A model generated the notes under the pieces. That model was given only the letters and a program-made list of their open reading frames with translations. It ran no database searches and was not told the origin of the DNA. The translations under genes and the position numbers were made by a program. Shown here in pieces: positions 4,200 through 31,505 of a stretch of 64,000 nucleotides of DNA. The stretch spans positions 1,729,450 to 1,793,449 of the forward strand of contig OZ220482.1 of assembly GCA_965116145.1 (NCBI GenBank), given 5' to 3'. How positions within the stretch are numbered: the stretch's first letter is position 1; each line of letters starts with the position of its first letter. The stretch is from Thermoanaerobaculia bacterium (GTDB lineage: Bacteria; Acidobacteriota; Thermoanaerobaculia; Multivoradales; Multivoraceae).

Positions 4200-7100
4200 A
4201 TGCGGCTTGAGGATCTTCAGCCCCGTTGCACGGTGCGCGGCGTGCATCCCGACGGGGCGGTGGAGGTCGTCAATGTCGAGTGGTTCGGGTCGGAGGCGGT
4301 CGAACTGACGTTCAAGGCGCCGGACGGGGGCGTCATGAACCAGCTTCTCTACCGCGACGACGAGGCCGGGCTGAAGCTGGTCGAGCGGGGGCGGGCGTGG
4401 TCCTTCGACGGGGATGGCGCCCTGTTCCGGCTGGTGTCGGAAGCGCAGCGCATCCGGCTCGCGCATCTGTTCGATCCGGTGCTGGCGGTGCATACGTCCG
4501 TGGTCGAGCCGCTGCCCCACCAGATCACGGCGGTCTACGAGGCGATGCTGCCGCGCCAGCCGCTCCGCTTCCTGCTCGCCGACGACCCGGGCGCCGGCAA
4601 GACGATCATGGCGGGACTGCTGATCAAGGAGCTGATGGCCCGCGGCGATCTCGAGCGCTGCCTGGTGGTCTGTCCGGGCGCCCTGGCCGAGCAGTGGCAG
4701 GACGAGCTCTACCGGCGGTTCCACCTGCCGTTCGAGATCCTGACGAACGACCGGCTGGACGCCGCGCGCACCCGCAACTGGTTCCTGGAAGCGAACCTGG
4801 TCATCGCCCGGTTGGACAAGCTGTCGCGCGACGACGACGTGCAGCAGAAGCTGCAGGCGCCCGGCGCCGAGTGGGACCTCGTCGTCTGCGACGAAGCGCA
4901 CAAGTTCTCGGCGACGTACTTCGGGCACGAGATCAAGTTCACGAAGCGCTACAGGCTGGGCCGGCTTCTCTCCGGCCTGACCCGCAACTTCCTGCTGATG
5001 ACGGCAACCCCTCACAACGGCAAGGAGGCGGATTTCCAGCTCTTCATGGCGCTGCTCGACGACGACCGGTTCGAGGGCCGCTTCCGCGACGGCGTGCACA
5101 CCGTGGATGTGTCCGACCTGATGCGGCGCATGGTCAAGGAACGGCTGCTCAGGTTCGACGGCAGGCCGCTCTTTCCCGAGCGCATCGCCTACACCGTCCC
5201 GTTCGAACTGTCCGACGAAGAAGCCCGTCTCTACGGGGAGGTCACGAGCTACGTCCGCGAGCAGTTCAATCGCGCCGAGGCGCTTGCCAACAGGAAGCGG
5301 ACGAGCGCCGTCGGTTTCGCCCTGACCATCCTGCAGCGGCGGCTGGCGTCCTCGCCGGAGGCCATCTACCGCTCCTTGCGGCGCCGGCGGGAACGGCTGG
5401 AAGGACGCCTGCGCGAACTCGAGGTCCTCCAGAAGGGCGGCCAGCACTCCCTGGTCGTTCAGTTCCTGGCGCCGGAACTCGACGAGGACGATGTCCAGGA
5501 TCTCGCCGACGCCCCGGAGGAGGAGATCGAGGACACCGAGGCGAAGGTCCTCGACCAGGCCACGGCCGCGCAGTCGATCGCCGAGCTGAGGGCCGAGATC
5601 GAGTCCCTGAAGCGACTCGAGGCGCTGGCGCTTGAAGTGCGCCGCGGCGGCCAGGACACGAAGTGGCGCGAACTTGCCAGCCTGCTGAACGAGATCTTCA
5701 GCCCCTCCGGCCGGGCCGACCGGATCGGAGAACGCACGACGCCCACCGGGACCGGTCCGGCGCCGCGGCCGGTCACGTCACCGGGGCAGAAACTCGTGCT
5801 GTTCACCGAGCACCGCGACACGCTGAGCTACCTGCACGAGCGGATCGGCACGCTGCTCGGCCGCGAAGGCTCGGTGGTCGTCATCCACGGCGGCATCGGC
5901 CGCGAGCAGCGCCTGGGCATCCAGGAGGCCTTCCTGTACGACCCGGAGGTCCAGGTGCTGCTGGCGACCGACGCCGCCGGTGAGGGCATCAACCTGCAAC
6001 GGGCGCATCTGATGGTCAACTACGACCTGCCGTGGAACCCGAACCGGCTGGAGCAGCGCTTCGGCCGCATTCACCGGATCGGCCAGCGGGAGGTCTGCCA
6101 TCTCTGGAATCTGGTCGCCAGGGAGACCCGGGAGGGCGATGTCTACCACCGGCTCCTGGAGAAGCTGAACCAGGCCCGCGAGGCGCTCGGAGGACAGGTC
6201 TTCGACGTGCTCGGCAAGCTGGAGTTCGAAGGCCGTCCGCTGCGGGAGCTGCTGCTGCGGGCCATCCGCTACGGCGAGCAGCCCGAGGTACGGGCCCGGC
6301 TCGACACCGCCGTCGACCATGCCCTGGACCACGGTGCGCTGCAGGAGCTGCTCGAAGACCGGCAGCTCGCGCACGACGCGATGGACGCCTCGCGCGTCCG
6401 GCGGGTCCGCGAGGACATGGAACGTGCCGAAGCACGCCGCCTGCAGCCGCACTACATCCGGTCCTTCTTCTTGGCCGCGTTCAGGCGGCTCGGCGGCAGA
6501 CTGCGCGAGCGGGAGCCGGGCCGCTTCGAGGTGACGAAGGTGCCGGCAGCCGTCCGCCGACGCAGCCGGCTGATAGGGACCGGCGCGCCGGTGCTGGGCC
6601 GCTACGAGCGGATCGCGTTCGAGAAACCGCTGGTGGCGCCGCAGGGCCAGCCGCTCGCCGACTTCTTCTGCCCCGGCCATCCCCTGCTGGACACGGTCAC
6701 CGATCTGACCCTCGAAGATCATCGCGGCCTGCTGCGGCGCGGCGCCGTCCTGGTCGACGAACGCGACCACGGCACGGCGCCGCGGGTGCTGTTTTCGATC
6801 GAGCACGCCCTGCAGGACGGCAACACCACCCGCAGCGGCGACCGGAAGGTCGTCTCCCGGCGCATGCTGTACGTGGAACTCGGCGCCGACGGCGATCCGC
6901 GCCACCTGCACTACGCGCCGTATCTCGACTACCGGCCGCTGACCGGCGACGAGCCGAGCGTCGACGACATCCTCGAGCGGCCCGAGTGCCGTTGGATCGA
7001 CCGCGGCCTCGAGCAGAAGGCGCAGGGGTACGCGGTCGCCAACGTCGTGCCCGAACATCTCAAGGAGGTGCGCGACGCGCGGCTCGACCTGCTCGCACGC

Positions 7101-7784
7101 ACCGAGGCGGCGGTCAAGGAGCGCCTGACCAAGGAGATCAGTCACTGGGACCACCGTGCCGCTCAGCTCAGGCTCGACGAAGAAGCCGGGAAGGCCGGCG
7201 CCCGACTCAACTCGGCCGAAGCGCGGCGACGGGCGGAGACCCTGAACGAGCGCCTCAGGAAGCGTCTGACCGAGCTGGAGCGGGATCGGCAGATCTCGCC
7301 CCGACCGCCGATCGTGCTCGGCGGCCTCCTGGTCGTCCCCCGCGGCCTGATCGACACGATGACGGGCGGAACCGGCTCCACCAACGCCGCCGCCGCCGCG
7401 ACCGACACCCAGGCGGCAGCCGCCGAAGCCCGCAACATCGTCATGGCAGCGGAGCGCCGGCTCGGCTTCGAACCCGTCGACCGGGAGTTCGAGAAGCTGG
7501 GCTACGACGTCGAGAGCCGGGACCCGGCCACCGGCAGGCTCCGGTTCATCGAAGTCAAGGGACGACGCAGCGACGCCCCGACGGTCACCGTCACCAGGAA
7601 CGAGATCCTGTATTCCCTGAACAAGCCGGACGACTTCATCCTCGCCATCGTCCTCTTCGACGACAGCGACAGCCCGCCGGTCCGCTACGTGCGGCAGCCG
7701 TTCGGGAAGGAACCCGACTTCGCGGCCGAGAGCGTCAACTACGCCCTGCGGGAACTCCTCGCACGGGCCGAGGACCCGAATTGA
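4200..7784 (+). CDS. SNF2-family helicase with C-terminal DUF3883 (restriction-endonuclease-like) domain
   Basis: SNF2 motifs are present: DDPGAGKT (I), DEAHKF (II), TATPHNG (III) and QRFGRIHRIGQ (VI). The C-terminus GYDVES...RFIEVKG...TRNE matches the DUF3883/NOV-C PD-(D/E)xK fold. Confidence 0.9.
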   Translation: MRLEDLQPRCTVRGVHPDGAVEVVNVEWFGSEAVELTFKAPDGGVMNQLLYRDDEAGLKLVERGRAWSFDGDGALFRLVSEAQRIRLAHLFDPVLAVHTSVVEPLPHQITAVYEAMLPRQPLRFLLADDPGAGKTIMAGLLIKELMARGDLERCLVVCPGALAEQWQDELYRRFHLPFEILTNDRLDAARTRNWFLEANLVIARLDKLSRDDDVQQKLQAPGAEWDLVVCDEAHKFSATYFGHEIKFTKRYRLGRLLSGLTRNFLLMTATPHNGKEADFQLFMALLDDDRFEGRFRDGVHTVDVSDLMRRMVKERLLRFDGRPLFPERIAYTVPFELSDEEARLYGEVTSYVREQFNRAEALANRKRTSAVGFALTILQRRLASSPEAIYRSLRRRRERLEGRLRELEVLQKGGQHSLVVQFLAPELDEDDVQDLADAPEEEIEDTEAKVLDQATAAQSIAELRAEIESLKRLEALALEVRRGGQDTKWRELASLLNEIFSPSGRADRIGERTTPTGTGPAPRPVTSPGQKLVLFTEHRDTLSYLHERIGTLLGREGSVVVIHGGIGREQRLGIQEAFLYDPEVQVLLATDAAGEGINLQRAHLMVNYDLPWNPNRLEQRFGRIHRIGQREVCHLWNLVARETREGDVYHRLLEKLNQAREALGGQVFDVLGKLEFEGRPLRELLLRAIRYGEQPEVRARLDTAVDHALDHGALQELLEDRQLAHDAMDASRVRRVREDMERAEARRLQPHYIRSFFLAAFRRLGGRLREREPGRFEVTKVPAAVRRRSRLIGTGAPVLGRYERIAFEKPLVAPQGQPLADFFCPGHPLLDTVTDLTLEDHRGLLRRGAVLVDERDHGTAPRVLFSIEHALQDGNTTRSGDRKVVSRRMLYVELGADGDPRHLHYAPYLDYRPLTGDEPSVDDILERPECRWIDRGLEQKAQGYAVANVVPEHLKEVRDARLDLLARTEAAVKERLTKEISHWDHRAAQLRLDEEAGKAGARLNSAEARRRAETLNERLRKRLTELERDRQISPRPPIVLGGLLVVPRGLIDTMTGGTGSTNAAAAATDTQAAAAEARNIVMAAERRLGFEPVDREFEKLGYDVESRDPATGRLRFIEVKGRRSDAPTVTVTRNEILYSLNKPDDFILAIVLFDDSDSPPVRYVRQPFGKEPDFAAESVNYALRELLARAEDPN

Positions 7785-7976: not shown

Positions 7977-10900
7977 ATGGCCGCAACGAATCACGAGCGC
8001 GTCGGCAAGGCGCTCGAGCTCCTGAGGGCAGGCCTGGCCCCCTTCGTCGACCGCGAGATGAAGCGCGCGGTCAGGAACGGACGGCTCGACCGCAGCGTCC
8101 TGGACTCCTTCAACGATCCCAGGCTGCATCAGCGCCCCCTGGTCGAATGGGACGCCGCGGCGTTGCTCAAGCTGATGTGGGACCACTGGAACAGCGTCTT
8201 CCGGGATGTCCTCGGGCCGGCCGAGCGCAGCTTCGTCGGCGAGCTGCGCGGGCACCGGAACCGCTGGGCGCACCAGGAGGCCTTCTCCGGCGACGACGCG
8301 TACCGAGCGCTCGACACGGCGGGCCGCCTGCTGACCGCGGTTGGCGCGACGAAGGAAGCGGCCGAGGTCGACCAGTCGAAGACGGAGCTTCTGCGGGAAC
8401 GTTACGACCAGCAGACGCGCAACCAGCGGCGGCGCCAGGCGACCCTCTCCATCAAGAGCACGGCGAGCCTCAAGCCGTGGCGGCAGGTCGTGACACCGCA
8501 CCGGGACGTGGCAAGCGGCGGCTACCAGCAGGCCGAGTTCGCCGCCGACCTGTGGCAGGCCTCGCACGGCGAAGGCGCCGAGGAGTACCGCGACCCGGCG
8601 GAGTTCTTCCGCCGCACCCACCTGACCGAGAGCCTCAGGCGGATGCTCGCCGGCGCCGCGCAGCGACTCGCCGGCCAGGGCGGCGATCCGGTCGTCCAGT
8701 TGCAGACGAACTTCGGCGGCGGCAAGACCCACTCGATGCTCGCTCTCTACCACCTGTGCTCGGGTGCGGCGTTCACCGAGCTGCCCGGTGTCGAGGACCT
8801 CATGCGGGAGAGCGGGGCGCCGGACCTGCCGGCGGTCAGGCGGGTCGTGCTGGTCGGCAATCGCATCTCGCCGGGGAATCCGGTGACCAAGGCGGACGGC
8901 ACGGTGGTGCGGACGCTCTGGGGCGAACTCGCCTGGCAGCTCGGCGGCGCCGAGGCTTTCGCCCGCATCGCGGCGGACGACCTGAACGCCACCAACCCCG
9001 GCGATGTCCTGCGGCAGCTTCTCGTCGAGTTCGGTCCCTGCCTGATCCTGATCGACGAATGGGTCGCCTATGCCCGCCAGCTTCACGACCAGGGCGACAT
9101 CCCCGGCGGCAGCTTCGAGACCCAGTTCACGTTCGCGCAGGCGCTGACCGAATCCGCCAAGGTAGCCGGCAACTGCCTGCTGGTGGTCAGCCTGCCGGCC
9201 TCCGACACCGCCAGCTCCCAGGCCGACGACGTCGAGGTCGGCGGTCAGCGCGGCCGCCAGGCTCTCAACCGGCTGCGCAACGTGATCGGGCGCATCGAAT
9301 CGTCCTGGCGCCCGGCCAGCGCGGAGGAGGGCTTCGAGATCGTGCGCCGGCGGCTGTTCGAGCCGTTCGCCGACCCGGAGAAGTTCCGGGACCGCGACGT
9401 TGTCGCCCGGGCGTTCGCCGACCTCTACCGGGACCGGTCTCACGAGTTTCCGCCGGACTGCCGGGACGCCGACTACGAGCAGCGGCTGAAGGCGGCCTAT
9501 CCGATCCACCCGGAGATCTTCGACCGCCTCTACTCGGACTGGTCGACCCTGGTGACGTTCCAGCGCACCCGCGGCGTGCTGCGACTGATGGCCGCGGTGA
9601 TCCACAGCCTCTGGCAGAAGGGCGACAGCAGCCCGCTCATCCTGCCGGCGAGCCTGTCGATCGACGACCCTCAGGTGCAGTTCGAGCTGACCCGCTACCT
9701 GCCTGCGCCCTGGGTGCCAGTGATCGAGAAGGACGTCGACGGCCCGCAGTCCCTGCCGCAGCAGATCGAGAGCGAAGTCACGAACCTGGGCAAGTACTCC
9801 GCCTGCCGACGAGTGGCCCGCACCGTGTATCTCGGTTCTGCTCCGAGCGCCGGCTCGGCACAGCGCGGACTCGAGGATCGCCGGATCAAGCTGGGCTGCG
9901 TCCTTCCCGGCGAGCCCCCCAGGGTCTTCGAGGACGCGCTGCGGCGGCTGGCGTCCCGCGCGACCCACCTCTACCAGGACGGCAGCCGCTACTGGTACGA
10001 CACGCGGCCGACCGTGACGAAGCTGGCCCAGGATCGCGCCGAGCAGCTTCGCCGCGAGCCGGACCAGGTGTCCCAGGCGATCGACGCGAACCTGCGCGCC
10101 GCCCTGCGCGAACGGGCCGGATTCAGCCGCATCCACATCGCGCCGCAGTCCGGCCACGACGTACCGGACGAACGCGATGTCCGTCTCGTCGTCCTCGGCG
10201 CCCGGCACGAGCACCGGCAGGAACCGGACTCCCCTGCCCAGGCCGCAGCAGCGGCCATCCTCGACTCCCGAGGCGCCTCGCCCCGGCTCTACCGCAACAC
10301 CCTCGTCTTCCTGGCGCCGGACCAGACGCGGCTGCAGGACCTCGAAGAGGCCGTCCGCCACCGCCTCGCGTGGGAGTCCATCCTCGCCGAGCGGGAGTCG
10401 CTGGATCTCTCGCCGCACCAGGTCAAGCAGGCGGATACCCAGCTCCAGGCAGCCGCCGAGTCCGTCAACGTCCGCCTGCCCGAGACCTACCGCTGGCTGC
10501 TCGTACCCGTCCAGGACGACCCGGCGGCGGCCGTGACCTGGAACGCCGCCCGACTCTCGGGCCACGCCGATCTCGCCGTCCGTGCCGCCAACCGCCTGAA
10601 GAGCGACGACCGGCTGGCCGCGGCGCTCTCCGGCACCCGGCTGCGGATGGAGCTCGACCGGATTCCGCTGTGGCGCGGTAACCACGTGCCGCTGCCGCAG
10701 CTCGTTGAGGACTTCGCGCAGTACCTCTACCTGCAGCGGCTGCAGAACCCGTCCGTGCTGCTGCGCGCGGTGGCGGACGGGGTCGGGCTGCTGACCTGGG
10801 AACAGGACGCCTTCGCCTGGGCCGACAGCTTCGACGAGACCGGCGGCGGCGCGGTGGCCTCCGGCAGTTCCAGCGGAGCCGGCGGCGCTGCCGTCGACGG

Positions 10901-11462
10901 GGCTGACGGCAGGACCAGCGCCGACGGTCCGGCCGAGACGTCCGGTCGGTACCCCGGCCTCCGCGCCGGCCAGGTGATCTCCCTGACGGACCCGGCGGCC
11001 CCGGGGCTCCTGGTCAAGCCGGACGTTGCACGCCGCCAACTGGAGGCGGAAAGCGCCCCGCCGCCGAGCGCCGCCGGCCCCGCCGCTGCGGCCGGCGCCG
11101 CGACCGACCAGACCGGCTCCGGCAAGACAGCGGCCGGCGCCGCCGCGGGGGCCGCTGCCGGACAGACCCCTCCGCAGGCGCCGGGCCCCAACCGGTTCGA
11201 CGGCGCCGTCTCACTGGACGCCACGCGCGCCGGGTACGAAGCGAGCCGGATCGCCGACGAGGTCATCACCCACCTGGCCAGCCTCGTCGGCTCCAGGGTC
11301 ACCGTGACCCTGGAGATCGAGGCCGAGTTCCCGGACGGGCCGCCTGACCGACCGGACGGGGCAACGGATCGCCCGGGCGGTGCACCGGACCACGTCGTCC
11401 GCACCGTGACCGAAAACTGCCGGACCCTGAAGTTCAGAAGCCACGGCTTCACGCGCGAGTAG
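7977..11462 (+). CDS. DUF499 P-loop ATPase with N-terminal Swt1-like HEPN domain
   Basis: The N-terminus carries the HEPN Rx4H motif (RNRWAHQ). The DUF499 hallmark P-loop FGGGKTH is present. A long Ala/Pro/Gly low-complexity linker precedes a roughly 90-aa C-terminal domain. Confidence 0.85.
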   Translation: MAATNHERVGKALELLRAGLAPFVDREMKRAVRNGRLDRSVLDSFNDPRLHQRPLVEWDAAALLKLMWDHWNSVFRDVLGPAERSFVGELRGHRNRWAHQEAFSGDDAYRALDTAGRLLTAVGATKEAAEVDQSKTELLRERYDQQTRNQRRRQATLSIKSTASLKPWRQVVTPHRDVASGGYQQAEFAADLWQASHGEGAEEYRDPAEFFRRTHLTESLRRMLAGAAQRLAGQGGDPVVQLQTNFGGGKTHSMLALYHLCSGAAFTELPGVEDLMRESGAPDLPAVRRVVLVGNRISPGNPVTKADGTVVRTLWGELAWQLGGAEAFARIAADDLNATNPGDVLRQLLVEFGPCLILIDEWVAYARQLHDQGDIPGGSFETQFTFAQALTESAKVAGNCLLVVSLPASDTASSQADDVEVGGQRGRQALNRLRNVIGRIESSWRPASAEEGFEIVRRRLFEPFADPEKFRDRDVVARAFADLYRDRSHEFPPDCRDADYEQRLKAAYPIHPEIFDRLYSDWSTLVTFQRTRGVLRLMAAVIHSLWQKGDSSPLILPASLSIDDPQVQFELTRYLPAPWVPVIEKDVDGPQSLPQQIESEVTNLGKYSACRRVARTVYLGSAPSAGSAQRGLEDRRIKLGCVLPGEPPRVFEDALRRLASRATHLYQDGSRYWYDTRPTVTKLAQDRAEQLRREPDQVSQAIDANLRAALRERAGFSRIHIAPQSGHDVPDERDVRLVVLGARHEHRQEPDSPAQAAAAAILDSRGASPRLYRNTLVFLAPDQTRLQDLEEAVRHRLAWESILAERESLDLSPHQVKQADTQLQAAAESVNVRLPETYRWLLVPVQDDPAAAVTWNAARLSGHADLAVRAANRLKSDDRLAAALSGTRLRMELDRIPLWRGNHVPLPQLVEDFAQYLYLQRLQNPSVLLRAVADGVGLLTWEQDAFAWADSFDETGGGAVASGSSSGAGGAAVDGADGRTSADGPAETSGRYPGLRAGQVISLTDPAAPGLLVKPDVARRQLEAESAPPPSAAGPAAAAGAATDQTGSGKTAAGAAAGAAAGQTPPQAPGPNRFDGAVSLDATRAGYEASRIADEVITHLASLVGSRVTVTLEIEAEFPDGPPDRPDGATDRPGGAPDHVVRTVTENCRTLKFRSHGFTRE

Positions 11463-11671
11463 GCGGCAACCAGGCGCCGGGGGAGGGCCGGAGCGAGGTT
11501 CCGCAACGCGGACCCGAGGCCCGCTGCGGAGGGCCGACCGAAGCCGAGTCGTCCGGATTGCCAAACGAAGGATCATCCTGATAGCTTCTTGAGCACCGAG
11601 ACACTGCCCCGCGTTCCGTCCAGCAGCGCCTCCGTACCAGATCATCTTGGGTGCCCCAAGAGGGGAAACCC

Positions 11672-11905
11672 ATGACCGACACACTTCTTGTCGCCCGCAA
11701 CCTCGAAGGGGCAGGAATGCACACCGAGCAGGCCGAAGCCGTCGCCGAGGCCAGCCGTGACGCCGTGACCGAGAACAGCGCCACCAGGGCCGACCTTCTC
11801 GACCTGGAACTGCGCCTCACCCGGCGCCTCTACGCGCTCGCGATAGCCCAGGCCGCCGCCACCGCAACGCTCACCGTCACCCTGCTACGCCTGCTGGCAA
11901 CGTAG
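11672..11905 (+). CDS. small DUF1640-like coiled-coil/TM protein (paralog 2)
   Basis: MTDTLLVARNLEGAGMHTEQAEAVAEA...RADLLDLELRLTRRLY followed by a hydrophobic tail. The SD sequence AGAGGGG precedes the ATG at 11672. Confidence 0.55.
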   Translation: MTDTLLVARNLEGAGMHTEQAEAVAEASRDAVTENSATRADLLDLELRLTRRLYALAIAQAAATATLTVTLLRLLAT

Positions 11906-12081
11906 CCAAGACCGCAGTCGACGCCGCCTTGGCACCGCGGCTACGCCCGCGCCGCCTCCTGATCGGGGCGCCATGCGGTCCTGCGCCGACCCACGTTGTG
12001 GTCAACGTCTGTCAACTGCCGTGCTACGCTGACCACAGCCACAGCCGCCCACGACCGGCGGCGCAACCGGGAGTCACCGAC

Positions 12082-12342
12082 ATGGCCGACACCGACAGCC
12101 GCCCAGGGGCGATGTCCCTCTCCGACGAGAAGGCCACGCCCATGAGGGTCTACAGCTCTTTGCGAGAGGCGGAGGTAGCCGCCGCGCGCCAGTACCTGGC
12201 TGCGTCAGGCACTGCCAGGTCGAAGTTCGTGACGCGCGTCGAGCGGGCCCCATTTGGCAAGGGGTACGTAGTGCGCTCCGTCCCCGCCAGCTTCGTGCTC
12301 AACCCGCACCTGCGACGATTGCTCAGGCCGAGAATGTCATAG
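12082..12342 (+). CDS. hypothetical small protein
   Basis: ORF with a GGGAG SD-like sequence before the ATG at 12082. No recognisable domain. Confidence 0.3.
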   Translation: MADTDSRPGAMSLSDEKATPMRVYSSLREAEVAAARQYLAASGTARSKFVTRVERAPFGKGYVVRSVPASFVLNPHLRRLLRPRMS

Positions 12343-12445
12343 AGGTCGAAGACAAGAGCCAATAGCGGCCTGCCCTACGGAACTAGACCCTCGTCGCGCA
12401 CAAAGAAAGAGGGAAGAAGCCAACGACAAAAAGGAGAGCGTAAAC

Positions 12446-12643
12446 GTGAAATCTCGAGTGGAGAGAGGGAGTCAAAGAACCAAGTACGTCGTAATTGACT
12501 TGAATGCCACGAAAGAACTGCAGGACTGGATTCAGAGCGACAGCGTCAATCGTATCCTCAAGTTCGCGGAGACGGCAGAAAAAAACCTGGGCTTGAGGAC
12601 GGCCGGAAAGGACTCTTCGCATCGCACCAACAATGACGGCTGA
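12446..12643 (+). CDS. hypothetical 65-aa protein, first gene of the low-GC cassette
   Basis: GTG start with a strong SD (AAAAGGAGAG). Local GC is far below the genomic background. Its stop overlaps the next start. Confidence 0.45.
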   Translation: MKSRVERGSQRTKYVVIDLNATKELQDWIQSDSVNRILKFAETAEKNLGLRTAGKDSSHRTNNDG

Positions 12644-13334
12644 CCTGCTGGGCTCCCTGTCCCTGAGCGGCGTCGCGGGTTACGTTTTTCTTCGTTGGTC
12701 ATGCCTCAAACGGTTTGATATCCGACGTGCAACAGGAGAACATGTCGTCTTCTGTTCAGTAATCGCGGGAATTTCGTTTGTCGTGCTGGGGCACGGCGTT
12801 CCTGTGCCGGAGATGACGCAACTGGGTTTCCTGAAGCCATACTGGACCCCGCTGCTGGCAGTAGTGTCGGCGGCCGTACTGGCACCAACACTCAACGTGG
12901 TTTCCCGCATTGCGCATCACTTCGGGACTTCAAACCCATTGATTTTCCCTTCATGGGCTGCGTTTGAGCGTGATGCGATCATTCAAGAAGATCCTTTTGT
13001 TGAGGTTCTCAGTTCCCGAGAACCTCTCGAGCTCACCCTACGGGACGGTAAGACGTACATCGGCTTCGTCGTCGCGACCAGTACTCCCCGATCAGGTGTA
13101 TCCCGCGCCTCGAAGATCGTCTGTTATGTGGTGCCAGTACTGAGCGGCTACAGAGATGGACAGACTCAGCAATTGAAGCTCACAACGGGATACGCAGCAC
13201 TCTTGCAAGACGAGGAAAACTGGCACCGTCTGGAGATCGTCATTCCACGGTCGGAGATCACTCGTGCTCGCTTGTTTGACCTCGGCTTGCACGTTGAAGG
13301 CGGGTTCGTGTCGCTGTCCGGTCCCAGCGAGTGA
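12633..13334 (+). CDS. membrane protein (3 predicted TM helices) with soluble C-terminal domain, low-GC cassette
   Basis: Hydrophobic helices in the first 90 aa. The start overlaps the upstream stop and the stop overlaps the macro gene start, so the three genes read as an operon. Confidence 0.6.
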   Translation: MTADLLGSLSLSGVAGYVFLRWSCLKRFDIRRATGEHVVFCSVIAGISFVVLGHGVPVPEMTQLGFLKPYWTPLLAVVSAAVLAPTLNVVSRIAHHFGTSNPLIFPSWAAFERDAIIQEDPFVEVLSSREPLELTLRDGKTYIGFVVATSTPRSGVSRASKIVCYVVPVLSGYRDGQTQQLKLTTGYAALLQDEENWHRLEIVIPRSEITRARLFDLGLHVEGGFVSLSGPSE

Positions 13335-13828
13335 AGTCGCGACGAGAGGCGCTGATCTCCTTCAGGACCGGCGACCTCCTTGATGAGGACGCAGAGGCGT
13401 TGATCAACCCCGTCAACTGCGTCGGGGTCATGGGACGCGGGATTGCACTTCAGTTCAAGAAGAAGTACCCCGGTAACTTTCGGGCCTACGTCGCGGCCTG
13501 CAAGCGGAAGGAGATCGTTCCCGGACGCATGTTCGTCTTCGAGACCGGTGCGCTCCTGTACCCCCGTTTCATCGTGAACTTCCCGACCAAGCGTCACTGG
13601 CGTGGCAAGAGTCGACTCCGGGACATCGAGGACGGGTTGGAGGACCTTGCCAGGCTGATCCGCGAGCGCAGGATCCGCTCCATCGCTGTGCCGGCGCTCG
13701 GCAGCGGACTCGGCGGACTGGACTGGAGCGACGTGCGGCCGCGCATCGAGGAGACCCTGCGCGGCTTCGACGATCTGGACGCGGTCATCTTCGAACCGGG
13801 CAGCGCGCTGGAGGCAAGGAGCGCCTGA
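13331..13828 (+). CDS. TARG1/DarG-like macro domain protein (ADP-ribose hydrolase family)
   Basis: NCVGVMGRGIALQFKKKYPG and PALGSGLGGLDWSDVRPRIEE align with TARG1 motifs (CRMGAGIAVLFKKKFGG; PRIGCGLDRLQWENV). Confidence 0.8.
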   Translation: MKSRREALISFRTGDLLDEDAEALINPVNCVGVMGRGIALQFKKKYPGNFRAYVAACKRKEIVPGRMFVFETGALLYPRFIVNFPTKRHWRGKSRLRDIEDGLEDLARLIRERRIRSIAVPALGSGLGGLDWSDVRPRIEETLRGFDDLDAVIFEPGSALEARSA

Positions 13829-13978
13829 GGTTGCCGGCTCTCTGGCGGCCACCTGCGGCTGAACGCATAGCCCAATCAAGCGCGCAGCCAAGCCTCCCGG
13901 CTCGGTGATCGCCGTGGCCATCTCATGGAGTACGACACGCGACCGACTTGCGCCGTCCGTTGCTCTCCGCGAGGCTCC

Positions 13979-14218
13979 TCAGGCGAACAGGCGCAGGCCG
14001 AGCAGCAGTGCCGCCATCGTGGTGCCGTGAATCAACAAGGACCGGTACAAGGTCGCCTTCATCTCGGCGACCGCCACGTCCAGGTCGGCCTTCGTTGCTC
14101 CGCCCTCGACAACCGCCACACGGCGGGTTTCGACCACGGCGTCCGCTTGCGGTGCGTCCATGCCGGCGGCTTCCAGGGCGCGCGCTGCGGCGAGCGTGTC
14201 GAACGTGGCTGTGTTCAT
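13979..14218 (-). CDS. small DUF1640-like coiled-coil/TM protein (paralog 3)
   Basis: MNTATFDTLAAARALEAAGMDAPQADAVVE...KADLDVAVAEMKATLYRSLL followed by a hydrophobic tail. The ATG at 14218 was chosen by paralog alignment. Confidence 0.55.
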   Translation of the reverse strand: MNTATFDTLAAARALEAAGMDAPQADAVVETRRVAVVEGGATKADLDVAVAEMKATLYRSLLIHGTTMAALLLGLRLFA

Positions 14219-14285
14219 GCTGGAGCAGCGCATCAACTGCGTTGTTGTCGATGCGCGCTCAGGCCCATTGCGGCGGGGAACGAGA

Positions 14286-17200
14286 TCAACTGTCCTCGCC
14301 CTCATCGTCGTCGTCATCATCATCGTCGTCGAAGAGTCCGGGGGTCTCCGGCCGGTCGGGGGTGCGGGCGAGGCGGGTGATCTCCGGCCAGCTCTGGACC
14401 AGGCTGTTGTAGGACAGGGCTTCGGCGGCGCGCTTCTTTCGTTCGCATACCGTGTAGAGCCGATAGCAGAGTTCGCGGGCTGTCTCCGCCCGGCTTCCGA
14501 GGCGCTTCACCAGGTCGGCGGCGCCCTGTTCGCCGCCCGATTCGAGCACCCGAATCAGGTGATGGACTGCCTCCCAGGCAGTGAGGCGCGTGTCCGTCTT
14601 CGGGTCCCAGTCCTCGGGTAGTTCCTTCGGCGCCAGCAGGCGGACCCGGCCGCCTCGGGACTCGACGACCCCTGCCTCGACCATGCCCTCTACGCTGGTG
14701 TTCTTGGCCTTGGACAGGGTCTCCGCGATGCCGAAGTCGCCCTCGTCGAAGCCGTTCTGCTCGAACCAGGCCAGCGCCCAGCGGCTGTCCGCGTCGAAGT
14801 CGCCTTCCTGTTCAGCCAGCACCTCGTCGAGGATCTCGTTGATGAGCGCCAGAGCCTCACGGACAGACATCGCGTTGCCGGCGGCGTCAAGCACCCTCTC
14901 GTGGCGCGTGTATGCCGCCATGCCCGGTCCGATCGCGGCCTGGGCGAGGTCCACCGGCGCGACGTTGCCGGACTGCAGCAGCCGCAGCGCCTTCGGCAGC
15001 TCGGCGCGCAGCGCGGTCAGGAACTCGCGGCGGGTGGCCACCGGAGCGTCGGCAGGCCGGCGGCGGCAGACGAGGACGATGCTGGAGGCCAGGGCGTTCG
15101 TCCTCATGCCGACCATCCGGTTGCTGAGCTCGGTGCGCATCGGCCAGGTGCCGGTGATCGCGAAACCGGACCGGATCGCGGCGTCCAGGAAGGTCTCCCA
15201 ACCGGTGCTCGCCACCCCCGTGTCGCCCTTGCGTTCGGACTGCTTGAAGGCGTAGTAGATCGTGACCGGAAAGCCGGGATGCGCCTGTTCGGCAAGCCGC
15301 TGCAGCGCGTCCGTCATGCCCGAGAGAAAGAAGGTCTCTGCGGCGGCCTTGTTGCCGTGCCGGTAGGGCGTCGCCACCAGTTCCTCGGCCTTCGGCACGG
15401 CCATCGTTGCGAACAGATCCGGAAACACCGGTCTCAGCGAGCGGCGTAACCAGACGTAGAAGAAGTCCGACAGGTCCGCGTAGCCGATGTTGTCGTAGTA
15501 CGGCGGATCGGTGGAGATGACCTTGTCGATGCTCAGGTTCTGAGTGCCCGCATCCGCAAGAGCCGCACTGCCGGCAGTGCTTGTCTGTGATTGGGCCAGA
15601 ATCTTGACGATCCAGCCGCACATGGAAATCCAATTGCCGCTGGACGTGCTCAGGGGATTCGCTTCGGCGTGGTCCCATGTCATCGGGATCGCTTGCCGCG
15701 CAAACGTGTTTCGTATCTTCGTGAACCCGATATCCCAAGTGCAGATCGAGGAGGAACGATCGGCCAAACGGTCCACCGCGAGGCCCAGATACAGGCCGAC
15801 CGCCTCGGCATACGCCGTCGCCCCCACACCGCCGTCGCGGAGCGGCCGTCCGTCGTCGGCGAGACCTGCCGCCGCGGCGTCCTGGCGGACCCGCTCCATC
15901 GCCTCGGCGACGAGATCGGAGAAGGTCGTCAGCGCAACGAGCTGGCGGGAGGTGAACAGGTCACACCAGCGGAGCATCCCGTACTCCTGCACGCGAAAGC
16001 CGAGTGCCCGCTGCGGCAGGTCGGTCTCGGGTGCCCACTCGGGGCTTGCGTTGATCGCCGTGAGCTCCTGGCTGGCCGACGCGTCAAGGTAGAGGCGTTG
16101 CCTGTCTCCTTCCGCGACAACTGCGAGGAGACGAGAACCCAGTCGGCCTGCCTTGCCCTCCGCTCGCAGGTAGTCAAACGGCATCGGTGACCCGGACATC
16201 AGGCACAGAAAGGGGCTGCCGCTGCCGCCGGACTTCGTCCCCCGCTTCGTCGCCTCGGGATCCGGCGGCGGTCCGACCCTTACCTCGAACCGGTACCCCC
16301 GCCCCTCGATCACCGGCTCGACGTACGCCTCCTTGCCCTTCTTCGTCGACAGCATGAACGTCGACGCCAGGGGCACCTCCACCTCCGCAAACGCCGGATT
16401 CGGACTCCGCACCGTCCGCGCCCACAGCCACGCGATCACCGTCAGCTTCCGGCCAGCGTACGGCGCCAGGTCCGGACGAGCCCGCGCCATCGCAGGAGCC
16501 ACCTCCACCTGCGGGTACAGATGGCCGATCCGACGCTTCACCTCGTCCCGCATCCAGCGGCCGTAGCGCCGCACATCTTCCGCCAGCCCCTGCGCACCGC
16601 GCCAGTCCCCGGCCAGCAACCGGGACTCACCCCGGGCCGCCGGATGCACCGGCGCCTTCCCGGCAAACTTCGGCGGCACCTCGATCATCGCCTTGTTGAT
16701 CAGCACCGCCACCGGGTTCAGGTCACTGGCATGGGACAGAAGCCCCAGACGCTGCGCTTCCAGCGGCAACGCCCCGCCCCCCGCAAACGGATCATGAAAC
16801 CCCGGCAACACCCCCGGATCGAACAGCTCCGCCTGCCCGCGGATGACCCGTGTTCGCCGCACAGGTCCGCTCCCAGCTCGCCCTGATCTCGGCCCGAGCC
16901 CGATCGAGCAACGCCTCGTTGGACGTGTTCTCCCACAGCACCAACTCCTCCAGCAACCTGAACAGACGCTCTCGCTCCTGCGCCGCCGCGATCTCCGCCA
17001 GCTCCCGCCTGTCGCGGGAGGCGTCCACCTCCGTCTCGCCGCCCGCACCCGGCTTCTCGCCCGCCGCCCGGCGCAGCCCGAGCGCACGCTCGGCCGCTCG
17101 TCGTCTGGCCGGATCCGACAGCAGCACATCGACGTACTCCTGGGGATCGTCGAGCATCTGGGCGAAGATCACCGCCCGCGCCACGGCGAGCGGCTTGCGC

Positions 17201-17437: not shown

Positions 17438-17632
17438 TCACGACCGCAGGTCAAACCGTCCATCCGCTGTCGTTCCGCCGGCGTCCCAGTCGAAAAAGCG
17501 CTCGCGATAGTCCTTCAGGCTGACCAGGGCGGCCGCCGGAGTCTGCCGCCGACAGATCAGAACCGGCCCACCGCCTCGTTCAAGCTGGTCCAGGACGCTG
17601 CCAAGCGACCGGCGGAGATCAACGGTGTTCAT
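17438..17632 (-). other. Phd/YefM-like antitoxin-type module (64 aa), in frame with integrase 1
   Basis: MNTVDLRRSLGSVLDQLERGGGPVLICRRQTPAAALVSLKDYRERF resembles Phd/YefM antitoxins. It has its own ATG at 17632. No partner toxin lies downstream. Confidence 0.45.
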
Positions 17633-18655
17633 TATCTTCCTGGATTCGGTCACCCTTTCAGCCGGGCTGCCAGGTGTCAACCCTGACGAGGCCCCTGACG
17701 AGGTCGCCGACAGCGTCGTTGGCATGGACCCTGACGTGTCGTCAGAAGGCGCGTCCGAGGCGCCGTGGCCCTCCGTTGCCGGCGCCGCCAGAAGGGCGGC
17801 CATGGCGCCTCCGATCCGCTCGGCCGCCGCTTCGGTGTCCTTGTCGCTGACGTGAGCGTAGCGGAGCGTCATTCGTGCCTGCGAATGGCCGAGCAGCCGC
17901 GAGACCACGGGCAGGGGCACGGACCGCATCACCGCGTGGCTGGCGAACGTGTGCCGGAGATCGTGCAGGCGTGCGTCGGCGATTCCAGCCTCGCGGCGCA
18001 CCTTCCGCCACAGCGACAGCTCATCGGAGCGGCTCGTGGAAGGATCGGTCAGCGAGGGAAACACGTACGGACTTCTGGTTCGGGGCTGACGGGCAAGGAC
18101 GGCGCGTGCCGGCGCGTTCAGGACGACGGTGCGCGGCCCGGTCTTGGTGTCGTTCAGGCGCAGCGAATCCCCGTCGACCTCCGACCAGCGGAGGCGCACG
18201 ATTTCGCCCTTCCGACAGCCTGTCCACAGCAGCAGCCGGATGATCTCCGCCTGCTGCCTGCCCGAGCCGCGGCCGCGGTGAGCGTCCAGAGCGGCGTGCA
18301 GACGTTCGACTTCCGCCCTGGACAGAAAGCGGGTCGGCTTCGGGCGCCGGTTGCGGTGAATGCCGCGGGTGGGATTGGTGGTGATGTGACCGCATGCCAT
18401 CGCGTGGTGGAAGATCTGGCGCAGCACGTCCAGTGTGCGGTTCGCGCCGGCCGGGGCGGACCGGCTGTAGCGGTCGAACCAGGCATTCACCGCCTTGCGG
18501 TCGATTCGGTCGAGCCGCCGCGGCCCGAACGTTGGCAACAACTGGGTGCGCAAGGCGCTGTCCATCCGCTTGCGGGTCGACGGCTTGCAGCGGGCATAGC
18601 TCACTGTCCTCCAGACGCCGGAAACGAACTTCCTGAACGTGGGGGGCCGAGTCAT
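17438..18655 (-). CDS. tyrosine recombinase/integrase 1, read in-frame into a C-terminal Phd/YefM-like module
   Basis: Catalytic region HDLRHTFASH...LGHSQARMTLRYAHV. Start at MTRPPTF (ATG at 18655) overlaps the integrase 2 stop (ATGA). There is no stop before the MNTVDL... module at 17632. Confidence 0.75.
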   Translation of the reverse strand: MTRPPTFRKFVSGVWRTVSYARCKPSTRKRMDSALRTQLLPTFGPRRLDRIDRKAVNAWFDRYSRSAPAGANRTLDVLRQIFHHAMACGHITTNPTRGIHRNRRPKPTRFLSRAEVERLHAALDAHRGRGSGRQQAEIIRLLLWTGCRKGEIVRLRWSEVDGDSLRLNDTKTGPRTVVLNAPARAVLARQPRTRSPYVFPSLTDPSTSRSDELSLWRKVRREAGIADARLHDLRHTFASHAVMRSVPLPVVSRLLGHSQARMTLRYAHVSDKDTEAAAERIGGAMAALLAAPATEGHGASDAPSDDTSGSMPTTLSATSSGASSGLTPGSPAERVTESRKIMNTVDLRRSLGSVLDQLERGGGPVLICRRQTPAAALVSLKDYRERFFDWDAGGTTADGRFDLRS

Positions 18656-19554
18656 CGCCCGGCGTCCAGCGCCGCCCCGACCGCCTCGGCGGCGCCCCGC
18701 ACGAAGGGGTCGGCAACGTGCACGTACTTCAGCGTCGTGGACGGGTCGCGGTGGCCCAGCAGGCGTCCGATCGTCAGCACCGTCTCGCCCTGGCGAAGTG
18801 CGAAACTGGCGTAGGTGTGGCGCAGATCGTGCAGTCGGACGCCGGGAATTCCTGCGGCCGCGCGCAGGGTCCGCCAGCACCTGTAGAGCGTTTCGGTCGG
18901 CATCGGCCCCGGCTTCTCGGCCGCCGGGAACACCCAGCGCCCGTTGCGCGGTATGCGGTCGAGCGCGGCCCGCGCCGCGGTCGAGAGCCAGACGGTGCGC
19001 GGCCCCGACTTGCTGTCGCGCAGGAACAGGTGACCCTCCCGATACTCGGACCACTTCAGTGTGCGGATCTCGCTCTGACGGCAGCCGGTGAGCAACAGCA
19101 GCCGGACGACGGCGACCGCGCAAGGTGCGACGGGTTCGTGGCCAGCCAGCGCGGCGCCCAGCCTGTGGACCTCCGCGGGCGTGAGGTGCCGCTCCCGGCT
19201 CCGCTCGGCGTACCGGTGAATCCCCACGCAGGGGTTGCTGTTCTCCCGGCGGTAGCCGTAGAGCTCGGCCTGCGCCATGATCACCGAGAGGACCGGAAGC
19301 GACCTGTTGGCGGCGGCCGGCGTGGCGCGCAGCGAAGCGAACCAGCTCGACACGTCGTCCCGCGTGATCCCGCCGATTTGCCGGCCGTTGAACCAGGGAC
19401 CGATCTGGTTTCGAAGATAGGACCGGTTGACGTGAAGGGTGCGTGGCTTCCAGCGGCGTCCGTAGCGGCGGAACACCTCTTCTGTCACGACTTCGAACCG
19501 TCTGCCGGCACCGCCATTGGAGGCGTTGGTCTCGGGTACTCGGCTTGCTGGCAT
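18652..19554 (-). CDS. tyrosine recombinase/integrase 2
   Basis: HDLRHTYASF...LGHRDPSTTLKYVHV. SD sequence GAGAGGAA before the ATG at 19554. Translationally coupled to integrase 1. Confidence 0.8.
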   Translation of the reverse strand: MPASRVPETNASNGGAGRRFEVVTEEVFRRYGRRWKPRTLHVNRSYLRNQIGPWFNGRQIGGITRDDVSSWFASLRATPAAANRSLPVLSVIMAQAELYGYRRENSNPCVGIHRYAERSRERHLTPAEVHRLGAALAGHEPVAPCAVAVVRLLLLTGCRQSEIRTLKWSEYREGHLFLRDSKSGPRTVWLSTAARAALDRIPRNGRWVFPAAEKPGPMPTETLYRCWRTLRAAAGIPGVRLHDLRHTYASFALRQGETVLTIGRLLGHRDPSTTLKYVHVADPFVRGAAEAVGAALDAGR

Positions 19555-20000
19555 CTGCTGTTCCTCTCTGGAGGGTCGGCACGGCTGTTCGGAGGGCCGA
19601 ACGCGGCTTCGGCGCGTCCCCGTCTCGTGCCGCACCCTCGGTATCGGCGGCCGCGCTACGGGGGCATGGCGGCAGCGCGGCGGCTACGCCTCGGGCTCGC
19701 GCGCTTGCCGGATCTGCGGCGCCGGTGGACTGTTAGAGTGCCCGAAGACTGGCGCCCCTGGACCGGAGTCCGGCCATTCGTACATTCGAGTGCGTCGCAT
19801 CGGCGCTCCCGCGTTCGGGGGCCGCGGCGAGAGGTCGGCGGTCGGCTGCAGAGGCCGGCCTGCCAGCCTGCAGTTCTCGGCGACTCGCCGCCGGATCGCG
19901 GCCGGGGCACCGGGCGGCGAGCCTCCTGCCAAGCGTCCTCCTGAGCGCTGCCGCCGTCTCCGTTGGGCCGTCACCGGGCACCGCGCAGCCGGAGTCCGGC

Positions 20001-23000: not shown

Positions 23001-23999
23001 TCCGGCAGCCGGTCGCTGGAGCATGCCTGGTCCGTGCCCGGGTTCTACACGGTGTCGCTGAGGGTCAGCGGCCGGGGTCCTTCCTCGACCGTGTCGCGCA
23101 AGGTGCTGGTCGTGGCGGCCGACCCGGTCGGTACCTGCGCGGCGGACGGCGAGACGCTGTGCCTTCAGGACTCCCGGTTCTCGGTGAAGATGGACTGGTG
23201 GACCGAGGACGGGACGGGAGGCAGGCGCGGGGCAGGCAAGGTGGTCCGCGAGGGGACGAACGACTCGGGGCTGTTCTGGTTCTTCTCGGCGGTGAACTGG
23301 GAGCTGCTGGTCAAGGTGCTCGACGGCTGCTCGGTTAACGGCCGGATGTGGGTGTACGGCGCCTCGGCGACGACGCTGGGTTACTCACTGACGGTGACGG
23401 ACACGGTGACAGGCGCGGCGCAGGAGTACCGGAACGAACCGGGCAGGCAGGCTGAGGCGTTCACCGACAGCGCGGCCTTCCCCGGAAGCTGCACCGATAC
23501 CGCGACGGCGGCTGCGGCAGCGGCCGCGGACGCCAGCGCCTTGCCACTGGTGGCCGAACCGTTGCCCGAACCGGCGCCGGCGGTGCACCATCTCGCCGTC
23601 GCCACTGTCTCGGTCGCCGCGCCGGCGGAGGACGACGTCTGCACCGACACGGCAACCGCGATGTGCCTCCAGAGGGGCCGCTACGAGGTGACCGTGGCGT
23701 GGTCGAACCTTGACGGCATGAGCGGCAAAGGCCGCACGGCCGGTCCGCGGACGGACGATTCCGGCCTGTTCCACTTCTTCTCGCCGGCGAACTGGGAGAT
23801 CCTGGTCAAGGTGCTCGACGGCTGCAGCTTCAACGACCACCACTGGGTGTTCGCTGCCTCCGCCACGGACGTCGGCTTCGATCTGCGGGTGCGGGACACG
23901 GCGACCGGTCGGACCCGGCGATACACCAGGCAGCCAGGCAAGCCGGCCCGGGCCCTGGTCGACATCTCCGCGTTTCCGCACGCCTGTCAGCGTCGGTAG
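20001..23999 (+). CDS. giant metzincin-type zinc metalloprotease with Calx-beta, cadherin/Ig-like (He_PIG-like), PKD domains and two C-terminal copies of an uncharacterised domain (paralog 1)
   Basis: HEVGHNLGLQH (HExxHxxGxxH) is present. Calx-beta-like units match (DYDNDAVTSVTF...DDKEDEDGETFTV). There are Gly/Asp-rich linkers and a poly-Asp run. No signal peptide is evident at the annotated start. Confidence 0.8.
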   Translation: MDEPAWCRVFPSVPGSESPAMSADIVGARAPEAQALHSAQTVGSTGTGKTSEITIYFFYTQQFEDQMASGLSYGSGAAARKAGVTGEVEKSVALTNEAFRNSGVNARLVMVGIEKSLDLPDSVWKARDWIRDSAYAKAVRNARAADLVYALIDDDNRSYGGYACRHYPQRYGWQNDFNRDDCFMGMINSLRDHHRGRIANWRTILRHEVGHNLGLQHPPEEIGGGPRDSYPGGRGYRSPSSWPGRAYGTVMSQLTVVSQRVSRFSSSTERWRDLVIGKKGIHEASSVLRQTVGYVSEYRFDDLAVPKVTWTRESLVAVVRVAASTAFGQEVVFNVAYGGAADTAVGASNPARADYDNDAVTSVTFSPTDTSKTFLIPITDDKEDEDGETFTVTLVPAEALPEGFSFGNMSTTVSIADDDHSPLLRPIDAVQVRVGETVDVRAHATDWDGDAISYRWTRKAGETVPALPAGTRQNRARLRFTPPGPGVYTMTVRASDRNGNVDREEVVITVGTVAGGNSPPVLAPLTDRTVKVGQTVDITAAATDADNDAIGYAWTRDASETSPAIPGGTALDQARLTFRASAVGTYTMTVTASDGNGNSDTEEVVVTVGSADTVSLSSSLSVAESAGSATVRVTVAAALGRSVTFTLTYGGSATGAASPGDGDDYDNDAVTLVTFGPADTAKAIAIPIRDDGLDEDSETIEVTIAVADGGTLPAGFELGATTTTVTITDDDESPVLSRLADRTVKVGQTVDITAVATDGDNDTIGYAWTRDARETSPAIPGGTALDQARLTFTASAVGTYTMTVTASDGNGNSDTEEVVVTVRPADPVGDDSGGGDGSPGGNPGSNDGNDGGGTGGNDGSSGGGPGPPDDPGGNDGGNGAPGGNNGSDGGPAGADNGPGGNSGGPGFGGGSGGGGTNDDDGAADDGDDDDDRGGPGGNDDDSGDGDWSGDAGGAVRASFTLDAPCADGLCRARTGVRVSFRDTSSGAVTSRTWNLGDGATSGSRSLEHAWSVPGFYTVSLRVSGRGPSSTVSRKVLVVAADPVGTCAADGETLCLQDSRFSVKMDWWTEDGTGGRRGAGKVVREGTNDSGLFWFFSAVNWELLVKVLDGCSVNGRMWVYGASATTLGYSLTVTDTVTGAAQEYRNEPGRQAEAFTDSAAFPGSCTDTATAAAAAAADASALPLVAEPLPEPAPAVHHLAVATVSVAAPAEDDVCTDTATAMCLQRGRYEVTVAWSNLDGMSGKGRTAGPRTDDSGLFHFFSPANWEILVKVLDGCSFNDHHWVFAASATDVGFDLRVRDTATGRTRRYTRQPGKPARALVDISAFPHACQRR
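22860..23999. repeat. direct repeat copy A: near-identical 1.14-kb 3' end of the metalloprotease genes
   Basis: Pairs with 27752..28885. Antisense ORFs 23381..23650 and 28273..28536 are also near-identical. Confidence 0.8.
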
Positions 24000-31415: not shown

Positions 31416-31505
31416 CGTGACGGTCGATTCGTGCGGCGGACGCTTGCAGGCCAAGACGGCCGGAGCACCCGGCGAGCGGTCTGTCCAGGACACGCTCCAG
31501 ACCTG

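Follow-up and report, generated by a model that had tools for sequence, protein, structure and literature searches.

The locus examined here raises the question of whether three tightly packed genes inside a bacterial defence island constitute a single system or a composite of parts with separate origins. The genes lie in a stretch of 64,000 nucleotides (64 kb; hereafter the window, whose positions are used throughout) from a Thermoanaerobaculia bacterium of the phylum Acidobacteriota (contig OZ220482.1, positions 1,729,450 to 1,793,449), and they encode, all on the forward strand, a small protein of 65 amino acids (aa; 12446-12643, GTG start), a 233 aa membrane protein (12633-13334) that is proposed to be a membrane effector, and a 165 aa macro-domain protein (13331-13828). 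A first-pass annotation of this DNA had treated the three genes as a low-GC cassette in which the macro protein could be a functional partner that tunes or restrains the membrane protein. Our analyses lead to a different division of the cassette, in which the conserved and self-contained unit is the pair formed by the small protein and the membrane protein, and the macro gene is, as judged from its sequence, a stump of a DarTG system that consists of the DarG macro domain alone. The explanation that we favour, with moderate confidence, is that the cassette represents a mosaic operon, composed of an acquired small-protein/membrane-protein module of a phage-exclusion or toxin-antitoxin (TA)-like nature and a separate DarG stump that has no toxin.

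A conserved pair of a small protein and a membrane protein

The three open reading frames (ORFs) overlap stop to start, as had been noted in the first-pass annotation, with an 11-bp overlap between the 65 aa and 233 aa genes and a 4-bp overlap (GTGA) between the 233 aa and macro genes; all three have gene calls in the source record, and none of them clusters with another sequence at 90% identity. The drop in GC content reported for the cassette is genuine, in that the lowest-GC 1-kb segment of the 64 kb begins at 12301 (54.5% GC) and the remainder of the window has a GC content of 69.2% ± 2.3% with a minimum elsewhere of 63.1%, which gives the dip a z value of -6.3 in a sliding GC analysis. 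Its length is ~1.0 kb rather than the 1.5 kb that had been claimed, and it comprises only the first two genes (12343-13334, 54.8% GC) to the exclusion of the macro gene. The GC content at third codon positions (GC3) is 0.65 for the 65 aa gene, 0.60 for the 233 aa gene, and 0.84 for the macro gene, the overall GC content of which is 64.5%; among the neighbouring genes, the GC3 is 0.83 for HmaB, 0.81 for the DUF1640-like genes, and 0.91 for HmaA and HmaC. Because the values for the pair (0.60-0.65) depart from the host-like value of the macro gene, a break in composition is placed at the junction between the membrane-protein gene and the macro gene, and this sharp difference argues against the three genes being parts of one system. 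The acquired module begins with a low-GC leader (12343-12445, +, 53% GC), in which a Shine-Dalgarno-like AAGGAG (12431-12436) is located 9 nt 5' of the GTG start of the 65 aa gene. Searches for direct or inverted repeats flanking the cassette, as marks of insertion, gave short chance-level matches only, a scan of 11400-14400 for sigma-70 promoters and intrinsic terminators revealed nothing exceeding shuffled expectation, and no Rfam match was found in 11000-15000.

A word-index search for the 233 aa protein recovered five relatives only and suggested that the family is rare. This apparent rarity is corrected by an exhaustive profile search, which found ~3,000 clusters (viz. 3,013 cluster representatives at E ≤ 1e-3 and 294 at E ≤ 1e-30, counted at 50% identity, with nearly all representatives 220-290 aa long). 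These relatives are reached only by profile searches or by using prophage members as queries; tblastn with the window protein gave no match in the phage and plasmid collections, and a scan of genome contigs yielded 3 loci only. We have surveyed ~136 loci of this transmembrane (TM) protein family, drawn from metagenomes, genomes, and prophages, for which flanks of 4-6 kb were requested; the loci fetched were 58 metagenome and 75 viral loci, and many of the metagenome contigs are only 1-2 kb long.

An iterated hidden Markov model (HMM) identified the small partner in 36 ORFs of the fetched loci, and nearly all of the remaining loci have a same-strand ORF of 55-90 aa directly upstream of the TM gene. 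The spacing between the small ORF and the TM gene ranges from -1 to ~60 bp and is usually within ~50 bp; the gene calls for P0002-P0006 and P0136, for example, show a gene of 60-71 aa immediately upstream of the TM gene and no macro gene. The small partners are very divergent, and their common pattern consists of two short hydrophobic stretches around a near-invariant glycine, a D/N position, and a helix. No macro gene was detected in the ~136 loci by hmmsearch with a DarG-macro profile. Because the upstream small ORF is near-universal and the macro gene is present in none of these loci, the true unit consists of the small protein and the membrane protein, and the idea that the macro protein tunes or restrains the membrane protein is not supported, in view of this absence, of the difference in composition, and of the autonomy of the pair. 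In the window itself, the 65 aa ORF is of the right size and in the right place to be the family partner, and its similarity to the family is marginal (BLASTP E = 0.001 to L003, no BLASTP match to L001), so that its homology to the family small partners is probable rather than proven. It fails the family small-protein HMM, has an arginine at the position of the family glycine, and contains an 8 aa insertion. A single-sequence AlphaFold2 (AF2) model of the 65 aa protein consists of two helices (predicted local distance difference test score, pLDDT, 74) and is uninformative.

The pair recurs in three kinds of defence hotspot, viz. the gpA-Q interval of P2-like phages, the Hma system, and type I restriction-modification (RM) operons. 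In the viral loci for which both gpA and the portal gene Q are present in the fetched flank, the pair is located between them in 43 out of 43 cases, and in 8 of these 43 P2-like loci it is the only cargo, since less than 700 bp is left before Q; this occurrence of the pair alone also speaks against a system that includes the macro gene. In P2, this interval is a documented anti-phage hotspot, in which old and tin are found (PMC9122126). One example of this arrangement is the Klebsiella phage ST15-OXA48phi14.1, in which the order is gpA, DinI, the pair, a SEFIR protein, and the portal gene; the Salmonella phages SEN4 and SEN5 also carry the pair, which in SEN5 comes after gpA. Pair-related DNA is present in 62 of 5,426 complete Escherichia coli genomes (~1%), where it is always annotated as hypothetical. 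In the P2-like prophage of E. coli TUM1881 (L151; NZ_CP128979.1, 1230241-1231298), the pair (WP_000094764.1 and WP_000212611.1) is the sole gpA-Q cargo and is located between DinI and the portal gene. In Table S5A of Rousset et al. (2022; PMC9122126), the E. coli pair proteins are given only as "hypothetical + hypothetical" and the cargo beside them is PIN, DUF262/DUF1524, or SieB; the E. coli pair sequence was not found among the tested systems in the parts of the Rousset et al. (2022) supplements that were accessible.

Among the loci outside the P2-like phages, the pair of L046 (2148-7839) separates hsdS from hsdR in a type I RM operon, an embedding that mirrors the one observed within the Hma system of the window. 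At two other loci the pair adjoins a type IIG methylase gene (L072) or is found near genes for an OLD-like ATPase, Eco57I, and PIN proteins (L012). The cassette of the window is located between HmaC and HmaB, at the convergent junction of a system that PADLOC identifies as Hma from the presence of the HmaA helicase, the HmaB methylase, and the HmaC ATPase at one locus, and the earlier claim of foreign DNA inside a defence system is thereby borne out. Embedded genes have been reported in 62.7% of 1,485 Hma systems, 22.8% of the Hma-embedded genes are known defence systems, and type I RM, BREX, and DISARM are likewise found embedded (Payne et al., bioRxiv 10.1101/2024.01.29.577857); hence, the site of the cassette is a recognised landing site for defence cargo. 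The same nesting, of a small autonomous cassette between hma genes, hsdS and hsdR, or gpA and Q, is shared with the HEC/PDC candidates in Hma and type I RM (Payne et al., 2024) and with the gpA-Q cargo of P2 (Rousset et al., 2022), and none of the HEC, PDC, or other PADLOC 2.0 models matches either protein of the pair.

Nothing significant was found for the 65 aa or the 233 aa protein in Pfam, NCBIfam, or PADLOC. In PADLOC-DB 2.0 (including HEC, PDC, PD-T4, and PD-Lambda), no match at E ≤ 0.1 was obtained for these two proteins or for 8 diverse members of the TM family and 2 small partners. The 233 aa protein matches phrog_3630, a group of unnamed function, at 2e-13. Its hydropathy profile indicates strong TM helices centred near residues 46 and 82 and a weaker N-terminal helix (2-3 TM helices), and the AF2 model, based on 46 sequences (pLDDT 84.5), contains helices at residues 2-32, 35-54, and 65-96, two short helices, and a barrel of six strands at residues 132-214, within a putative Sm-like domain of residues ~121-214. 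The description of this gene product in the first-pass annotation as a membrane protein with a soluble C-terminal domain is in agreement with both the hydropathy and the folded C-terminal domain of the model. Foldseek searches with the model gave Sm/LSm proteins as the top PDB matches (E = 3e-3, probability 1.0, target TM-score 0.6-0.69), and a weak profile match to the Sm-fold protein YaeO is in agreement with this. Because the first loop is positively charged (5 K/R versus 2 D/E), we infer from the positive-inside rule that the Sm-like barrel is cytoplasmic. All seven family-invariant residues (N88, Y142, G144, S171, G172, R174, and F215) are kept in the window protein.

In its predicted layout, in which a few TM helices precede a small beta-barrel in the cytoplasm, the TM protein of the pair resembles MscS-type channels, CBASS Cap15, and RexB. 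The cytoplasmic domain of MscS is Sm-like, and proteins of this type, on oligomerising, form a membrane pore or disrupt one. However, the 233 aa protein has no sequence similarity to MscS, Cap15, or RexB, and its top structural matches are soluble Sm/LSm proteins and not MscS; the cassette also differs from abortive-infection effectors such as CBASS Cap15 in that no nucleotide-signal synthase is nearby. DUF6338 (PF19865) is a membrane family of similar size whose function is unnamed. The best family member (P0136) has a match that spans the TM region and the first part of the soluble domain and stays below threshold (E = 7e-5, 22.9 bits, cut-off 26.5); neither the 233 aa protein of the window nor the prophage members gave any match.

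The macro gene as a truncated DarG

The macro protein matches the Pfam Macro family (PF01661) with 87.1 bits against a cut-off of 22, the PADLOC DarG model at 4.8e-74, and the NCBIfam DarG equivalog NF048014 with 256.4 bits (cut-off 250), the last of these matches covering positions 1-154 of 338. Its best PDB matches are the DarG proteins of Mycobacterium tuberculosis (5m3i, 1.3e-53) and Thermus aquaticus (5m31, 2.9e-50). The first-pass annotation had called the protein TARG1/DarG-like, and the DarG part of this label is upheld by these matches; assignment to the TARG1/OARD1 subfamily was rejected, as TARG1 chains match the protein at E ~1e-5 in the PDB sequence search. Its identity to the macro domains of full-length plasmid DarGs is 64-67%, and the plasmid DarGs used for this comparison are located directly downstream of DUF4433 (DarT) genes.

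The macro motifs quoted in the first-pass annotation (GRGIALQFKKKYPG and GSGLGGLDW) are present in the protein, both glycine-rich loops are kept, and all of the positions that are invariant across 14 DarG sequences are retained. Residues K87 and W90 align with K80 and W83 of DarG, which serve in catalysis and in thymine stacking, respectively (PMC9411070, PMC9967889). Since the catalytic lysine and the thymine-stacking tryptophan are kept, the macro protein probably still strips ADP-ribose from DNA thymidine.

The remainder of DarG is missing. The macro ORF stops ~8 residues past the macro domain, at 165 aa compared with ~340-370 aa in DarG, and the C-terminal DarT-binding domain of DarG (~residues 160-340) is absent from it; no remnant of this domain was found in the 64 kb by tblastn with three full DarGs at a relaxed E-value. 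The absence of DarT, which had also been remarked upon earlier, extends to the whole 64 kb when searched by tblastn with two full DarTs and one fragment (best E = 0.12), and the Pfam DarT family (DUF4433/PF14487) was not found in the ORFs at 12446-13828, 11651-11905, 11929-12342, and 13979-14323. The position of the DarG initiator methionine is occupied by leucine (CTG at 13352), and the macro ORF begins at a GTG (13331) that overlaps the stop of the TM gene; because this start codon falls inside the end of the TM gene, the macro gene would be expressed with the pair. A call of a DarTG system was rejected on account of the lack of an adjacent DarT and of the DarG C-terminal domain, and in annotation the macro gene should not be labelled as a DarTG system. 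Compared with DarG (NF048014; 5m3i, 5m31), the window protein thus shares the equivalents of K80 and W83, the glycine-rich loops, and a score above the equivalog cut-off, and it differs in having lost the DarT-binding domain, its DarT gene, and its native start, and in following an unrelated membrane-protein gene.

The closest relatives of the macro gene are 65-79% identical to it and 150-280 aa in length. Alignment shows that P0008, P0011, P0012, and P0049 are DarGs cut at differing points in the linker or the C-terminal domain. All three of the relatives that were viewed in their genomic context are located inside type I RM operons (3/3). One of them (L007, 4843-7055) retains a DarT fragment of 98 aa, and its DarG is divided between a macro ORF and a C-terminal ORF, the latter being 64% identical to residues 158-342 of full DarG; another (L008, 4486-9446) is a macro-only gene between hsdS and hsdR that overlaps the start of hsdR; and the third (L006, 4117-6546) is a macro-only gene adjoining an insertion sequence. 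Because its nearest relatives are truncated DarGs in type I RM operons, the macro gene belongs to a recurrent type of DarTG remnant, and it seems that DarTG decay repeatedly leaves intact macro-only stumps behind.

Another orphan macro protein without a cognate DarT is the stand-alone actinobacterial protein SCO6735 of Streptomyces coelicolor, which cleaves thymidine-linked ADP-ribose and for which a role in protection against foreign DarT-like toxins was suggested (PMC9411070). SCO6735 lacks the catalytic lysine (Gln85) and is too distant to appear in the PDB sequence matches, whereas the window protein is a true DarG macro domain. The macro gene is, in these terms, ordinary, being of a known family in a known state of decay and not representing a new macro family. 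From its sequence it is best read as an orphan antitoxin domain that is possibly useful against incoming DarT toxins; no positive evidence was found for its being anti-defence cargo, which the first-pass annotation had mentioned. The recurrence of macro-only DarG stumps in RM operons raises the question of whether orphan DarG domains are kept as immunity against incoming DarT.

Macro and TM effectors are known to exist together in type II Thoeris. A Thoeris-II-like reading of the cassette was dropped because its proteins have no PADLOC ThsA/ThsB match and the macro protein is specifically a DarG.

Competing explanations of the cassette

According to the mosaic-operon explanation, the segment 12343-13334 would be a horizontally acquired two-gene module that moves between genomes into phage-defence cargo sites. 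The pair would most likely function as a TA-like phage-exclusion or abortive-infection module, and the role of defence effector suggested for the membrane protein in the first-pass annotation is plausible. The TA-like traits that the loci display are the order of the two genes, their tight spacing, and a scattered distribution on mobile DNA. The Sm-like domains may oligomerise into a ring, as is usual for Sm folds, and in such a ring the TM helices would be brought together into an assembly that disrupts the membrane or blocks entry; the small protein, as a putative regulator or antitoxin-like partner, would restrain this assembly or sense its trigger. The macro stump would be expressed by read-through from the inserted pair and would not be a regulator of the membrane protein. 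The history of the locus may have begun with a DarTG system embedded in this Hma system, after which the low-GC pair would have displaced darT, or arrived following its loss; the C-terminal domain of DarG, useless without DarT, would then have been deleted, and the macro ORF would have gained a new start codon coupled to the TM gene.

A number of observations weigh against this explanation. Both the ring and the disruption of the membrane are purely inferred from the predicted fold, no published test ties the pair to phage defence, and PADLOC 2.0, Pfam, NCBIfam, and PHROGs provide no functional name for it. Several chromosomal relatives adjoin genes for a Na/H exchanger, MutS2, a P-type ATPase, or GGDEF proteins, and the cargo that directly follows gpA/DinI in P2-like phages is invariably the pair, which could be an accessory gene conserved within the lineage and serving the phage itself, as opposed to a defence gene. 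The 65 aa ORF of the window shows only marginal similarity to the family small proteins, and the window copy of the module may be degenerate. Lastly, the 4-bp overlap and the start of the macro ORF within the TM gene indicate tight co-expression, which is compatible with a new functional link between the two genes.

Two alternatives, both of which we regard as unlikely, concern the function of the pair. The first is that the pair provides a prophage or mobile element with superinfection exclusion, phage DNA entry being blocked at the inner membrane with no killing of the cell; this is a form of the defence reading that differs in mechanism. In favour of this possibility, the pair is found where P2 carries its exclusion genes old and tin, a SieB gene is present in the same hotspot at some E. 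coli loci, and the 233 aa product is predicted to be an inner-membrane protein with a cytoplasmic fold of a nucleic-acid-binding type. However, the TM family is also common beyond prophages, on chromosomal contigs, and the tightly coupled small gene upstream is more suggestive of a TA module.

It is similarly doubtful that the pair has no role in defence and is either a selfish addiction module or a membrane protein of physiological or phage-internal function, in which case the entire stretch from HmaC to HmaB would be an accumulation of decaying insertions. The housekeeping neighbours at several relatives, the divergence of the small ORF of the window, the truncation of DarG, the duplication of HmaB with one copy frameshifted, and the lack of a function assigned by any database could all be accommodated in this manner. 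Set against these points, the 233 aa protein retains every family-invariant residue, the macro ORF is unbroken and has lost none of the DarG-invariant positions, and the recurrence of a neutral gene in three differing kinds of defence hotspot is improbable. A housekeeping identity for the cassette, which the first-pass annotation had named as the outcome that would overturn its view, did not emerge from our analyses.

If all three genes formed one system, the macro protein would, by hydrolysing or sensing ADP-ribose, keep the membrane effector in check or adjust it, whether in the manner of a DarG antitoxin directed at a toxin other than DarT or in a split form of a Macro-TM signalling effector. 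This possibility draws on the stop-to-start overlaps, the loss of the native ATG in favour of a GTG inside the end of the TM gene, the intact catalytic residues, and the Macro and TM effectors of type II Thoeris. It is nevertheless very improbable given that, in addition to the absence of the macro gene from the family loci, the solitary pairs in P2 hotspots, and the GC3 difference, the macro gene is one of many independently truncated DarGs, and neither a TIR protein nor an ADP-ribosyltransferase (ART) nor a DarT was found that could partner the cassette proteins.

Returning to the mosaic operon and its pair, the pair is absent from Pfam, NCBIfam, PADLOC 2.0, and RefSeq naming, and its distribution among hotspots makes it a good candidate for a new defence module with an unusual predicted architecture. 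A bolder proposal, which we consider tentative and yet worth serious attention, is that the pair represents a widespread undescribed anti-phage system with a membrane-anchored Sm-ring effector, of which the window would hold a rarer extension, with a DarG macro domain recruited as a third component. To our knowledge, no defence system with a membrane-anchored Sm ring has been reported. Should the pair prove to be a defence module, a common unnamed system would join the bacterial immune repertoire, and it would bring with it an unusual effector design in the form of a membrane-tethered Sm-like domain. The E. coli prophage version (WP_000094764 and WP_000212611) provides a testable and convenient experimental model. 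The locus also illustrates the rebuilding of defence islands, in that a foreign cassette at or upstream of the usual position of darT has captured the expression of a DarG macro domain.

The Hma locus and neighbouring genes

The Hma system that surrounds the cassette consists of HmaA (4200-7784, +; PADLOC 1628.6 bits), HmaC (7977-11462, +; 1090.9 bits), and the HmaB methylase copy A (14286-17129, -; 1302 bits), the last of which is convergent with the cassette. Two small DUF1640/CCDC90-like genes with weak matches to Pfam PF07798 are found at 11651-11905 (+) and 13979-14323 (-). They are paralogous (BLASTP E = 1e-7) and in inverted orientation, each appears to be the last gene in one of the two convergent hma transcription units, and together they flank a 2-kb stretch that contains an orphan ORF, the pair, and the macro gene. 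The orphan ORF (12082-12342, +, 86 aa) has a high GC content, is located just 5' of the low-GC segment, and has no homologue besides itself among 5.8 billion proteins.

A second HmaB gene is present at 31431-34130 (+), inverted relative to copy A. The two HmaB copies form a perfect inverted repeat of 1,931 bp (arms 14900-16830 and 31880-33810) with 643 identical residues, and the repeat extends N-terminally at 92% and then 83% identity. Copy A has the full C-terminus and has its N-terminal region in another reading frame, and copy B has the true N-terminus and a C-terminus that is short and different; inversion of the 15-kb segment between the repeat arms would restore one full-length HmaB. 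This arrangement could be due to phase variation, rearrangement, or an assembly artefact.

The segment between the HmaB inverted repeats includes a gene for a 714 aa tyrosine recombinase (17438-19582, -) that has an XerC/D-like core and a weak Phd-antitoxin-like match at its C-terminus. Two paralogous and very large ORFs of 1,332 aa (20001-23999, +) and 1,551 aa (24230-28885, +) have no PADLOC match; they contain many internal repeats of ~300 nt and share long stretches that are 90-96% identical. Further downstream, a 517 aa ORF (29395-30948, +) has a C-terminal part that resembles ABC/OLD-type defence ATPases, with matches to PD-T4-4_A (4e-35) and also to AriA and GajA, and it may represent another embedded defence gene.

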